Origin: a virus
Lineage: Duplodnaviria > Heunggongvirae > Uroviricota > Caudoviricetes
DNA: 16,351 bases
IMG/VR virus record: IMGVR_UViG_2851933302_000006
Strand: one strand, 5' to 3'
Part shown: piece after piece, positions 1 to 10,939 of the stretch
Numbering within the stretch: position 1 is the stretch's first letter
How the letters are laid out: each line of letters opens with the position of its first letter
Position numbers and translations under genes: made by a program
The notes under the pieces: model-generated
Told to the model about the DNA's origin: nothing
Database searches by the model: none
What the model saw: the letters and a program-made list of their open reading frames with translations, nothing else

Positions 1-1266
1 ATGAAGCTCAGCGCCAGACAGGTCGAGACCGCAAAACCAAAAGATAAAACCTACAAAATGGCCGATGGCGGCGGTTTGTACCTTGAGGTTTCGGCCAAAG
101 GATCAAAATATTGGCGTATGAAATACAGACGCCCCTCTGACAAAAAAGAGGATCGCCTCGCTTTTGGTGTTTGGCCTACTGTGACGCTTGCTCAGGCAAG
201 AGCAAAGCGCGATGAAGCCAAAAAGCTATTAGTGCAGGGCATTGATCCAAAAGCCGAACAGAAAGAGGCTCAGGCCGAGAACTCGGGGGCATATACTTTC
301 GAAACCATTGCTCGTGAATGGCATGCCAGCAACAAGCGCTGGAGTGAAGACCATCGATCTCGCGTTCTTCGATATCTTGAGCTTTATATCTTCCCTCATA
401 TTGGTTCGTCCGATATTCGTCTACTCAAAACCAGCCACCTGTTAGCCCCAATTAAAAAAGTTGACGCTAGTGGAAAACACGACGTCGCTCAGCGCCTGCA
501 ACAGCGTGTAACGGCCATTATGCGTTATGCTGTACAGAACGATTACATTGACTCGAATCCGGCCAGTGATATGGCTGGTGCGCTATCTACAACCAAAGTG
601 CGACATTACCCTGCGTTACCTTCCTGCCGGTTACCTGAGTTTCTTGCACGTCTCGCTGCATATCGTGGTCGTGTAATGACACGGATCGCAGTCGAGCTTT
701 CCTTACTGACTTTTGTGCGTTCCAGTGAGTTACGTTTCGCGCGTTGGAATGAGTTCGACTTCGATAAAGCCCTTTGGCGCGTACCTGCAAAGCGGGAGGA
801 AATTAACGGGGTGCGTTACTCGTATCGTGGTATGAAGATGAAAGAGGAGCATATTGTTCCTCTTAGTCGTCAGGCGATGAATTTGTTAGGCCAGTTGAAG
901 CAGATTAGTGGTGATAAGAAACTGCTTTTCCCGGGCGATCATGACGCAACTAAGGTTATGAGTGAAAACACAGTAAACAACGCATTACGGGCGATGGGAT
1001 ATGACACTAAAACCGAAGTTTGTGGGCATGGATTTAGAACGATGGCGCGTGGTGCACTGGGGGAGTCGGGGCTATGGAGCGATGATGCGATAGAGCGTCA
1101 GTTAAGCCATACAGAACGAAATAATGTACGCGCGGCTTATATCCATACTTCTGAGCATTTGGACGAACGTCGATTGATGGTACAGTGGTGGGCTGATTAT
1201 TTGGAAGAGAATAAACTAAGAATGATAACACCATTTGATTACGGAAAAATATCTAATATAAAGTGA
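1..1266 (+). CDS. int: P4-family tyrosine integrase. The ORF starts at window base 1, so the true start could lie upstream.
   Basis: 421-aa ORF. The N-terminal arm-binding-like region (LYLEV...KYWRMKYR) and a C-terminal catalytic region with HGFRTMARG (HxxR) and a conserved Tyr (RAAYIHTSE) are typical of phage integrases. It sits at the edge of the element. Confidence 0.9.
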   Translation: MKLSARQVETAKPKDKTYKMADGGGLYLEVSAKGSKYWRMKYRRPSDKKEDRLAFGVWPTVTLAQARAKRDEAKKLLVQGIDPKAEQKEAQAENSGAYTFETIAREWHASNKRWSEDHRSRVLRYLELYIFPHIGSSDIRLLKTSHLLAPIKKVDASGKHDVAQRLQQRVTAIMRYAVQNDYIDSNPASDMAGALSTTKVRHYPALPSCRLPEFLARLAAYRGRVMTRIAVELSLLTFVRSSELRFARWNEFDFDKALWRVPAKREEINGVRYSYRGMKMKEEHIVPLSRQAMNLLGQLKQISGDKKLLFPGDHDATKVMSENTVNNALRAMGYDTKTEVCGHGFRTMARGALGESGLWSDDAIERQLSHTERNNVRAAYIHTSEHLDERRLMVQWWADYLEENKLRMITPFDYGKISNIK

Positions 1267-1291
1267 GTTTATAAAAATCAACTTTTGAAGC

Positions 1292-1309
1292 GGGGGGATT
1301 CCCCCCCCC
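1292..1309. terminator. G6-ATT-C9 hairpin between the convergent int and cargo genes; possible bidirectional terminator or structural element.
   Basis: GGGGGGATTCCCCCCCCC lies between the int stop (1266) and the minus-strand ORF stop (1324), flanked by repeated AACTTTT. No U-run directly abuts the stem, so terminator function is uncertain. Confidence 0.35.
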
Positions 1310-1323
1310 AACTTTTATAAAAA

Positions 1324-2217
1324 TTAAACATCTTCTCGACGTTTAGAGTTTGCGCGATATAGCGTTCTGGTTATATGGGATGTGAAATAGTCCTCATCTA
1401 AAAAATGCAATAATCTTTTTACATCTTTTCTTATTTGCGGCATTTTTATTTTTTCTAATTCACCGATTTTTTCAGTTTCTAGAACAACACCAATTTCAGC
1501 CGCCGATATTCTTAACTCAGTCACAGAGTAGTCCTCAAGTATTCTTGATTTATTAATCAAGGAAACTTTCTTTCTAATAACAGAGTCAGCAATTGTTGTT
1601 AAATCAAAACCCGGAGCTACTGAAAATTTTTCATGAGAAGAAAAACTTGTTAATTCTTCATTAGTGGCTTCTCTGAAATAAGCATCTACATCAAATATCC
1701 TGCGGAGCATATGGAAGCTTTTAAACTTTAATTCTGTACCTGCAAGAATAGCTGTTAGCTTATTGTCGATGACTATACCATGCTCAGTAGACTGGCAAAA
1801 GGTATTGCTTGCCTGAAATGGTTTTTGGAAAATTGTTCTTCTGTTATCAATAACTTGCCTTTTATCGAAGCTTTGGATTAAGGCAGTTGCAGGTTTTCCA
1901 TCCTCTTCAGGATAGCCTGAAAACAGAGCGATTATATTGAAGACTGATATTTCTTCCGGCTCCCATGGAGGGATAGTTGTGGGATTATTAATAGCATCTA
2001 ATACAGCGATAACATCATCAAAGTCAGGAATGACAAAAAACTCATCTCCACTAGTGATGTAGCCACCTGAAAATTCTACGCCTTCTGTATAGCGTTCTTC
2101 AAAAAAAGTTTTTTGTTCATTGAATAGCTGTGTGATTACATTTTGAGTCGGCCTGTCAGTAACAATTTTTACAATGCGTGTGCCAACTGTATTATCTGTT
2201 ATTGCAAACAATTCCAT
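1324..2217 (-). CDS. Hypothetical cytosolic protein, second gene of the hotspot two-gene operon; possibly KwaB-like (unconfirmed).
   Basis: 297-aa ORF that looks AT-rich by eye. It starts 8 nt downstream of the membrane-protein gene with an AGGA-type RBS. There are no hydrophobic segments and no motif I can assign with certainty. Confidence 0.7.
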   Translation of the reverse strand: MELFAITDNTVGTRIVKIVTDRPTQNVITQLFNEQKTFFEERYTEGVEFSGGYITSGDEFFVIPDFDDVIAVLDAINNPTTIPPWEPEEISVFNIIALFSGYPEEDGKPATALIQSFDKRQVIDNRRTIFQKPFQASNTFCQSTEHGIVIDNKLTAILAGTELKFKSFHMLRRIFDVDAYFREATNEELTSFSSHEKFSVAPGFDLTTIADSVIRKKVSLINKSRILEDYSVTELRISAAEIGVVLETEKIGELEKIKMPQIRKDVKRLLHFLDEDYFTSHITRTLYRANSKRREDV

Positions 2218-2225
2218 ATTTATTC

Positions 2226-2741
2226 CTATATTGCTATATATGTGTAATCAGTAAGCTTAATCAAATTAACACGATTGCCTGATGCTTTTAACAGTGGCTT
2301 TTTCGATAATATAACAAAGCTTACGCCTGTATCGTCTTCGGCTTCATAATATTTATATCCCCAAAATGATAATAATGGGTTGAAACTGTAGGAACCTGAA
2401 AAACTGATGTAAAAAAATAAACTCACAGCAAAGAAAGAAGCAATCCTAATATCCATAAATGCATCTGGACCACTGATTAAGGGAAATAAATAGGTTAAGA
2501 AATAATTTGTTATCTCCTTATCTGCTGGAGAGGCGGTAGTTAATTTTTTACTGGTTACAGAATTATATTTAATTGCGTATTTAACAATCAAAACACACAG
2601 TAAAAGTATAATTGCACACAATGATAAGTAAGCAATCATAAATTTATAGTGTTTTGATATACATGAAAGAAAAGCTAAGGTAAAAAATACCGGAGCAACT
2701 GAGCTGGCAGTAAGAAGATATTTGGCAAGCTTATTTAACAT
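2226..2741 (-). CDS. Small integral membrane protein with about 4 predicted TM helices, first gene of the hotspot operon; possibly KwaA-like (unconfirmed).
   Basis: 171-aa ORF with four hydrophobic stretches (e.g. VAPVFFTLAFLSCIS, FMIAYLSLCAIILLLCVLIV, YFLTYLFPLISG, IRIASFFAVSLFFYISF). A strong RBS (AAGGAGG on the minus strand, + coordinates 2747–2753) sits 5 nt before the ATG. Confidence 0.75.
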   Translation of the reverse strand: MLNKLAKYLLTASSVAPVFFTLAFLSCISKHYKFMIAYLSLCAIILLLCVLIVKYAIKYNSVTSKKLTTASPADKEITNYFLTYLFPLISGPDAFMDIRIASFFAVSLFFYISFSGSYSFNPLLSFWGYKYYEAEDDTGVSFVILSKKPLLKASGNRVNLIKLTDYTYIAI

Positions 2742-10373: not shown

Positions 10374-10389
10374 CCCTCATGACTCATCT

Positions 10390-10413
10390 GACCGGCATCT
10401 GCCGGTCTTTTTT
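10390..10413 (+). terminator. Rho-independent terminator of the alpha operon.
   Basis: GACCGGC-ATCT-GCCGGTC stem-loop followed by TTTTTT, 17 nt after the alpha stop. Confidence 0.8.
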
Positions 10414-10432
10414 CATCCCTGAATCCCCCGAA

Positions 10433-10704
10433 GGTGAACAATCCACTGTTCACCCTTCACCGTATATTCACCCGTTATCACACTGAAATTAAAAGAGAAA
10501 AACGAAAGGTGAACAGTGTGAACAATCAAATCAAAAAAAACTTTTTTCTTCCTGAGTGATTTCAGTGCGGAGGATTAATCACCGGTATGAGTCACATCGG
10601 CAGAATGCCGGAGGTGAAGAATCGAATGTTCACCCTTCACCCATTATTCACCACCTATCAAACTGAAATAAAAGGAGAAAACAGAAAGGTGAACAGTGTG
10701 AACA
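10433..10704. repeat. Two imperfect tandem ~120-bp repeats, each carrying GGTGAACA/TGTTCACC iterons: cis replication region (crr-like; the ori/crr assignment could be swapped).
   Basis: Unit 1 spans about 10433–10550 and unit 2 about 10613–10730, with parallel motif order (GGTGAA[C/G]A, TGTTCACCCTTCACC, ATTCACC, AAAGGTGAACAGTGTGAACA, A-run/T-run). Confidence 0.75.
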
Positions 10705-10917
10705 GTTCTTTCGAAAAAAAATTTTTTATGTGGATAAAAGATGCACTGGTTTGGATCCGAGCTACGGATCCAAACTTACTGATTAAAAATGATTTAACTT
10801 TCCGATTTATTGATGGGCTGAAAATAGATTGGTCAGAAAAACAGTGGGGGCACAAAAGGGGGCATATTTCATTGTTGTGTTTTATTATTTGTTTTTTATC
10901 ATTAACTTATTTTGATG

Positions 10918-10939
10918 TTTGAGTCCGGCCTTCGCACCA
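10918..10939 (+). other. att-site direct repeat: 3'-end fragment of a tRNA-Leu-like gene marking the right end of the satellite.
   Basis: TTTGAGTCCGGCCTTCGCACCA resembles the T-arm/acceptor 3' end with CCA of E. coli leuX as I recall it (GGTTCGAGTCCGGCCTTCGGCACCA), apart from a 1-nt difference. A tRNA-type terminator follows it. Confidence 0.55.

Follow-up and report, generated by a model that had tools for sequence, protein, structure and literature searches.

The stretch of DNA analysed here (the window; 16,351 nucleotides (nt), IMG/VR record IMGVR_UViG_2851933302_000006) is 100% identical over its whole length to positions 3895457-3911807 of Escherichia coli O18 (NZ_CP007275.1) and to several human isolates. 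Window positions 1-10939, together with the 182 nt that lie 5' of base 1, make up a P4-like satellite prophage of about 11.1 kb, integrated at the 3' end of leuX, the gene for tRNA-Leu(CAA). Base 1 is the annotated start codon of int in NZ_CP007275.1, and the end of leuX sits 163 nt 5' of it. Reading from int, the element carries the Kiwa genes kwaB and kwaA, a gene for a 103-amino-acid (aa) protein with a predicted WYL domain, the cos site and then the P4 backbone up to attR (Table 1). Surveys differ on how common P4-like satellites are in E. coli, with figures from about a quarter to a half of the genomes. We consider it highly probable that the present one is a complete and probably mobilisable member of the group, carrying WYL-Kiwa cargo in a known hotspot.

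The resemblance to P4 (NC_001609) extends over nearly all of the element outside that hotspot. In blastn alignments, window positions 3396-10939, from the right cohesive end to the attP core, match P4 at 97.5% identity over 7.5 kb and positions 1-1205, within int, match at 88.8%, while a search with positions 1206-3395 gave no match to P4. All 11 backbone open reading frames (ORFs; int, psu, delta, sid, vis/orf88, an ash/icd-like ORF, epsilon, orf151, cnr/orf106, alpha and orf111) are open, with 88-100% aa identity to P4, and 10 of them have the P4 length or differ from it by at most 3 aa, the exception being Int (421 versus 439 aa). Moura de Sousa and Rocha (PMC8628076) base their Type A of P4-like satellites on seven components: integrase, psu, delta, sid, alpA/vis, epsilon and alpha. 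All seven are intact and co-localized here, follow one another as in P4 and show 92-99.5% aa identity to the P4 proteins. Cis-acting sites were placed by transferring the annotated sites of P4 via the whole-element alignment. Besides gene order and the leuX site, the element shares with P4 the ori and crr iterons, the arm-type Int sites, the late-promoter dyads and the layout of the CI RNA; it differs in its hotspot content, in an int allele with a new C-terminus, in one base of the cohesive end, in an attR core of 19 nt against 20 nt in the P4 attP core, and in diverged type-2 repeats at ori.

A first-pass annotation, made from the sequence alone, had proposed a complete P4-type satellite with proteins of P4-like length and with cos, iterons, late-promoter dyads and att intact. 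That this is a P4-type satellite is confirmed, far beyond chance, by the blastn alignment, the open reading frames, the cis sites and the CI RNA. The whole-element alignment for which the annotation had called bears out a P4 backbone, no core gene proved to be disrupted, and the att copy that it expected upstream of int was found as a 20-nt core within an intact leuX. Its statement on protein lengths stood for every backbone ORF except int, and its statement on the sites stood for the type-1 iterons and the dyads; attR, however, lacks one G, cos carries one substitution and the type-2 repeats have diverged.

Table 1. Features of the P4-like element, with positions in the window (position 1 is the first base of int)
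Feature	Position	Strand	Description
int	1..1266	+	P4-family tyrosine integrase, 421 aa; 92.3% aa identity to P4 Int
G6/C8 hairpin	1292..1308		between convergent int and kwaB; found by a terminator-like scan
kwaB	1324..2217	-	297 aa, DUF4868, Kiwa effector; PADLOC KwaB E 6.5e-117, residues 1-294
kwaA	2226..2741	-	171 aa, multi-pass membrane protein, Kiwa sensor; PADLOC KwaA E 1.6e-76
WYL-domain gene	2939..3250	-	103 aa, predicted stand-alone WYL domain (predicted structure); cos-proximal end of hotspot
cos region	3367..3414		19-nt cohesive end 3377-3395, GTGCTTTCCCCGCCACGCC, cut after 3395; conserved flanks
psu	3560..4132	-	capsid decoration, Rho inhibitor; 189/190 aa identical to P4
delta	4206..4706	-	Ogr/Delta-type late-gene transactivator; 164/166 aa identical to P4
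sid	4703..5437	-	external scaffold, small capsids; 242/244 aa identical to P4
Psid region	5472..5527	-	TGT-N12-ACA dyads 5472-5489 and 5510-5527, spaced 38 bp; region 96-100% identical to P4
ori	5607..5709		six type-1 iterons TGTTCACC, 6/6 identical to P4
PLL dyad	5868..5885	+	TGTAAGGCTGCCGGAACA; TGT/ACA arms kept, 3 internal changes versus P4; upstream of orf88
vis/alpA (orf88)	5988..6254	+	excisionase, regulator; 87/88 aa identical to P4
leader, seqA target and terminator	6313..6403	+	Rfam c4-a1b1 50.8 bits, isrK 71.2 bits
seqA	6367-6374	+	GTTATCGG; complementary to seqB (P4: TTCACAGG)
CI immunity RNA	6502..6589	+	C4 antisense family; Rfam RF01695 74.2 bits
seqB loop of CI RNA	6546-6554	+	TCCGATAAC; P4 loop TCCTGTGAA; 5/9 positions differ
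seqC	6626..6634	+	GTTATCGGA; exact complement of seqB loop (P4: TTCACAGGA)
epsilon	6834..7121	+	helper-prophage derepressor; 94/95 aa identical to P4
orf151	7114..7569	+	151/151 aa identical to P4
cnr/orf106	7705..8025	+	DUF5375, copy-number control; 106/106 aa identical to P4
alpha	8040..10373	+	primase-helicase; 763/777 aa identical to P4
alpha terminator	10390..10414	+	24/25 identical to P4
crr	10428..10727		two 120-bp repeats, 0 and 2 mismatches versus P4; type-1 iterons 10/10 identical
arm-type Int repeats, attR side	10844..10867	+	identical to P4
attR core	10921..10939	+	19 nt, GAGTCCGGCCTTCGCACCA; right end of element

What sets the element apart from P4 is the segment running from the last int codons (about 1206-1252) to 3366, which holds kwaB, kwaA and the 103-aa WYL gene where P4 has gop/beta/cII. 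The first-pass annotation had recognized a two-gene operon in place of the P4 genes, and this operon can now be named as Kiwa on the basis of the PADLOC matches and the predicted KwaB fold. kwaA ends 8 nt before kwaB, in the canonical order; the PADLOC match of KwaA takes in residues 1-171 against a model length of 173 positions, and hydrophobic segments are found in the protein, for which four transmembrane segments were reported in the identical system 14 of Rousset et al. (PMC9122126). KwaB passes the Pfam PF16162 cutoff narrowly (28.2 bits, cutoff 26.3), and its AlphaFold (AF2) model (pLDDT 80), compared with the PDB by Foldseek, has as its only significant matches the solved KwaB structures 9mrx, 9nyu and 9mtn (E 1e-7 to 8e-6); solved KwaB accounts for each of the first five hits (probability 1.00, TM-scores 0.44-0.48), which cover the full length at 12-13% identity. 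Matches that run end to end in PADLOC, together with the fold of KwaB, support membership in Kiwa at the level of family model and fold. Where int and kwaB converge, the hairpin that separates them is probably a bidirectional terminator.

The hotspot and this particular cargo have been described before. Rousset et al. (2022, PMC9122126) identified the psu-int locus of P4, beside cos, as an anti-phage hotspot with more than 300 arrangements among 5,251 loci, Kiwa being named among them, and a 2026 paper (PMC13586616) reports rapid swapping of P4 hotspot cargo between identical cores. Table S1A of the former lists the trio WP_001205027, WP_000932801 and WP_000418440, which are the accessions annotated in the present locus, and Table S1B gives the trio as system 14, 'WYL/DUF4868', with 93 occurrences (PMC9122126). 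The three ORFs of the window are 100% identical to the system 14 proteins, KwaA being protein 2 and KwaB protein 3. Their source, E. coli TA280, has the system in the same slot between int and cos, and its DNA differs by a few bases, among them changes of length in the homopolymer runs of the int-kwaB hairpin. The combination of element and cargo is thus already known, having been catalogued in 2022.

Whether the pair acts against phages has to be asked separately from its family membership, and several points weigh against the assignment of an active Kiwa system. The clone with identical proteins (pFR79, 'WYL-Kiwa', from TA280) appears under the 'additional tested systems' of Table S2B but is absent from the 'validated defense systems' of Table S2A (PMC9122126). 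KwaA does not reach the NCBIfam equivalog cutoff (32.9 bits versus 100) and is shorter, at 171 aa, than in the characterized systems (E. coli O55:H7, ECOR8/12/49; structures 9mrx, 9nyu and 9mtn); searches of PDB sequences with KwaA, with KwaB and with a KwaB profile built from 19 homologues gave no match; and 12-13% identity to solved KwaB places the pair very far from any characterized Kiwa. One could therefore suppose that these kwaAB-like genes are no anti-phage system in practice and are inactive or repurposed, for example against conjugation or the helper phage only, a supposition that both the listing of pFR79 outside the resistance-giving systems and the distance of the pair from characterized Kiwa would fit. 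We think this unlikely. The pair shares with those same characterized systems the operon of a membrane kwaA followed by a DUF4868 kwaB, with full-length PADLOC matches for both proteins and the KwaB fold recovered over the full length, and its hotspot is one in which defence systems predominate. Kiwa variants moreover have narrow and differing phage specificities, which makes a panel of 8 phages a weak negative. A distant Kiwa system with a putative defence role remains the assignment we favour for kwaA and kwaB.

The third cargo gene, noted in the first-pass annotation simply as a 103-aa gene, is predicted to encode a stand-alone WYL domain. The protein has no match in Pfam (even at E up to 10), PADLOC or NCBIfam, so the assignment rests on the predicted structure, in which one helix and five strands form a WYL barrel followed by a short C-terminal tail. 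Rousset et al. (PMC9122126) suggested that the WYL protein 'perhaps regulates the system', and one may take this further and regard the three cargo genes as a single system in which the WYL protein would serve this Kiwa subtype as its dedicated sensor or regulator. The genes are indeed adjacent and co-oriented, the trio co-occurs at ≥99% identity in 30 E. coli genomes as well as in two IMG/VR loci (L013 and L014), an int-kwaB-kwaA-WYL block is conserved at about 90% identity in strain S1, and WYL domains do regulate other defence systems, such as those of BrxR and CapW. Those regulators, however, are built differently: compared with BrxR, CapW, DriD and PafBC, to which its identity is 10-13%, the 103-aa protein has the WYL fold alone, with no winged helix-turn-helix (HTH), dimerization or WCX domain. 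No HTH is present in the model, which therefore does not correspond to the (w)HTH-fused WYL regulators of the BrxR/CapW/DriD type, and a protein lacking this and the other regulator domains cannot act as a classical transcription factor. Nor does it carry any other effector domain, and a gap of 198 nt separates the gene from kwaA.

The distribution of the WYL gene also argues against a fixed partnership. Its homologues fall into 91 clusters at 43-99% identity, mostly away from Kiwa, and those at 50-87% identity are found without any Kiwa in six other contexts; among these surroundings are housekeeping genes (Acinetobacter and a marine scaffold), an integrase with an OLD-like nuclease, and a Yersinia P4-like hotspot with a DUF2971 gene, and Photobacterium and Pantoea are also among the Kiwa-less hosts. 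Conversely, strain NCCP 13963 has a 93%-identical Kiwa minus the WYL gene. Homologues without Kiwa and a Kiwa without WYL lead us to treat the WYL gene as a separable module; the idea that it is an obligate Kiwa component was rejected on the six Kiwa-less neighbourhoods, and its role as a dedicated sensor or regulator appears doubtful, though it is the alternative to our reading to which we give most weight. Most likely, the 103-aa protein binds a putative nucleic-acid ligand and is an independent accessory module, not a dedicated Kiwa repressor. The more specific proposal that it is an autonomous, mobile nucleic-acid-sensing module, serving as an accessory sensor or counter-defence factor at the cos-proximal edge of P4-type hotspots and islands independently of Kiwa, seems to us rather improbable.

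A related observation concerns Pantoea agglomerans (L019/L020, about 4790-5337), in which a WYL homologue of 87% aa identity lies beside a degenerate cos-like sequence, GGCGTGGCGGGGATACGAG, in an AbiEi/AbiEii island. The arrangement suggests that this AbiE island is a decayed P4-like element.

Within the backbone, the genes and sites needed for the satellite cycle are conserved to an extent that varies by region. Int keeps the box-I Arg, the HGFR motif and the catalytic Tyr stretch, whereas its C-terminal ~16 aa are replaced relative to P4, and its DNA is 88-93% identical to that of other leuX P4-like elements, whereas the remaining backbone (3367-10939) is 98-99% identical. An Alpha-dependent origin is present in that all type-1 iterons, 6/6 at ori and 10/10 at crr, are as in P4, and the arm-type Int repeats are identical to P4 across the element (6/6). 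The dyads upstream of sid and orf88 stand where Delta/Ogr-responsive Psid and PLL sites would be expected. Between ori and PLL, a patch of 100 base pairs (bp; 5775-5874) has only 71% identity to P4 and contains, and in effect removes, the three type-2 repeats. There is also a 9-nt insertion relative to P4 at 10376-10384, between the alpha stop codon and the alpha terminator.

The second divergent patch, 6275-6664 (82-92% identity to P4), is the immunity region. The seqB loop of the CI RNA is exactly complementary to two sites, one 170 nt upstream (seqA) and one 89 nt downstream (seqC), as expected of RNA-based immunity, and although the loop differs from that of P4, both targets carry exact changes that compensate for it. 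Because the changes in seqA, seqB and seqC are mutually compensating, they argue that the immunity circuit is still under selection. The relatives fetched for comparison (L008-L014) have at least four types of loop, and in every case the targets, at about -170 to -179 and +88 to +89, match the loop, so there is an immunity-type polymorphism among related loci. The three-way compensation also suggests that the element belongs to a different immunity type and is probably heteroimmune to P4. Heteroimmune relatives of P4 are known; a literature search on the immunity specificity of P4 and phiR73 gave nothing usable.

Mobility is the part of our reading that a further alternative disputes, namely that the element is domesticated: an immobile, P4-derived defence island, fixed at leuX, inherited vertically and with its cargo swapped by homologous recombination in place. 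The attachment sites bear on this first. At the left, attL is an exact copy of the 20-nt P4 attP core and forms the last 20 nt of the intact tRNA gene (window -182 to -163). At the right, the attR core reads GAGTCCGGCCTTCG-CACCA and has one G fewer than attL and the P4 attP core (19/20), the missing base falling in CTTCGGCACCA, while the core is 20 nt long in attL, in the empty attB and in the attP of the P4 reference. Such a deletion in one att copy is what an immobilized island might show; yet the same 19-nt core is present in 5 further leuX P4-like prophages of E. coli, whose cargo differs, and in 7 IMG/VR contigs, was found in 13/13 prophage copies examined (the element and 12 relatives, L003-L014), and is followed by at least three unrelated kinds of right flank, so that it travels with the element and characterizes the element family. 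An origin by local decay or through an assembly error was rejected, the core being the same in 12 other elements with different flanks.

The unoccupied site adds to this picture. A synthetic query in which leuX is joined to the right flank, the empty-site junction being written as leuX-CACCGTATGC, matches 105 complete genomes end to end, some of them at 100% identity, including APEC O1. As these matches run end to end, the unoccupied attB holds the full 20-nt core; the missing G, confined to attR, must then come from the element side, which implies that strand exchange would take place 3' of that position. Strand exchange by P4-family Int may fall in the final 5-6 nt of the tRNA (CACCA), and natural attP cores may differ from that of the laboratory P4 reference.

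The cos site raises a similar question. Homology of the backbone to every relative restarts at 3367-3370, 7-10 nt before the cohesive end, and the cohesive end itself, shared with P2-family helpers, has one substitution relative to P4/P2: position 3391 is A, whereas P4 and ten other P4-like loci have T, so that the variant reads GGCGTGG... where the others read GGCGAGG.... A base unseen in those ten loci could be counted as a sign of domestication, but the identical 19-mer is found in ten IMG/VR contigs beside portal and terminase. The one contig checked (L029) shows the P2 order of terminase, portal, cos, hotspot genes and a gpA-type nickase, and the cohesive end of phage 186, GGCGTGGCGGGGAAAGCAT, has the same base at the variant position. 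Taken together, the P2-like context of the 19-mer and the phage 186 base indicate a naturally used cohesive end of P2-like phages, and a substitution that inactivates packaging was rejected on the same ground.

Three details nevertheless weigh against full mobility and should be stated. The 1-nt difference between attR and attL could lower the efficiency of excision if it lies in the region of strand exchange. The variant at 3391 is absent from L013 and L014, which carry the same cargo and are otherwise 99.7-99.9% identical, and it could be a recent mutation. The three 10-bp type-2 repeats of ori (5813-5842) have 4, 4 and 7 mismatches to P4, a divergence that domestication would also accommodate; set against it, the trans-acting genes and the iterons are all intact, and the immunity loop has co-varied with both of its targets.

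The remaining evidence comes from the distribution of the cargo and of the site. The WYL-Kiwa cargo is present at ≥99% identity in 30 of 5,426 complete E. coli genomes, and these carriers belong to unrelated serotypes and hosts (including O18, O91, O155:H21, cattle, chicken, wood-wren and seawater). In IMG/VR, L014 has the same cargo (99.7-99.9% identity); its backbone carries the P4-type immunity loop, and its attR flank is different. Strains that share the chromosomal flank of the present element have other content at this site, with gop/beta/cII in IHE3034, a TIR protein in PMV-1 and the empty site in APEC O1. In strain S1, int, kwaB, kwaA and the WYL gene have co-diverged as one block at about 90% identity, beside an IS1, and NCCP 13963 has a comparable block, made up of an int fragment, kwaB and kwaA but no WYL gene, next to an int pseudogene within another island (loci L025/L026). 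The joint divergence suggests that int and cargo are exchanged together, and elements with different cargo on one flank, together with a block of int and cargo that co-diverges, are what recombinational exchange in a fixed island would leave behind. Such an island would not, however, be expected to put the same cargo on a backbone of another immunity type at another flank, or to leave precise empty sites in related strains. The same cargo on another backbone and flank, the unrelated carriers and the empty leuX sites lend indirect support to mobility and to spread of the cargo, and we regard domestication as very unlikely. In the plasmid collection there was no close free-replicating copy showing the attP form, the best records being of chromosomal size and 79-80% identical.

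To the right of attR, the chromosome continues with an orphan ORF, a phosphorothioate-DNA-dependent restriction endonuclease gene, a truncated nanS, nanM, nanC and fimB. The orphan ORF, just outside attR (11901-13664, ORF from 11688), encodes 587 aa at a GC content of about 30-35% and has a longer variant (2037 nt) at this place in related strains; it has no match in Pfam or NCBIfam and only a marginal one in PADLOC (PDC-M29B, E 0.0012). The endonuclease, of the kind that binds phosphorothioated DNA, is encoded on the minus strand at 14287-15159 (NF045808, 438 bits) and adjoins an HNH endonuclease fragment and a truncated nanS (15259-15452); together these make up a small defence islet between attR and the nan genes.

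On the reading of a mobilisable satellite with Kiwa cargo, the life cycle can be outlined by homology with P4 and from established P4 biology. In the lysogen, the seqB loop of the CI RNA would pair with seqA and seqC on the transcript of the left operon and cause early termination, so that the replication genes would be silent while Int and the cargo genes would be expressed. On infection by a P2-family helper, or on induction of one, the helper's activators and the P4 Delta protein would fire Psid and PLL via the TGT-N12-ACA dyads, and Vis and Int would excise a circle of about 11.1 kb, to be replicated by Alpha from ori and crr. Epsilon would derepress a resident helper, Sid would divert the helper capsid protein to small capsids decorated by Psu, and the helper terminase would cut at cos and package the satellite together with its cargo. 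For the cargo, a characterized Kiwa offers the model: a membrane supercomplex of a KwaA tetramer and KwaB dimers, in which KwaB binds DNA and which is antagonized by Gam, blocks replication and late transcription (bioRxiv 10.1101/2023.02.26.530102). By analogy, the membrane protein KwaA would sense a phage-induced perturbation of the envelope and release KwaB, which would then bind the incoming DNA and block its replication and late transcription.

With the cargo already catalogued, the correct annotation of this locus is of little wider import in itself, and the element serves to illustrate the published defence reservoir of P4. Open to follow-up are the WYL gene as an independent module and a Kiwa subtype that lies far from those with a solved mechanism. 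A third point is the compensatory change that this natural element shows in each of its three immunity sites.

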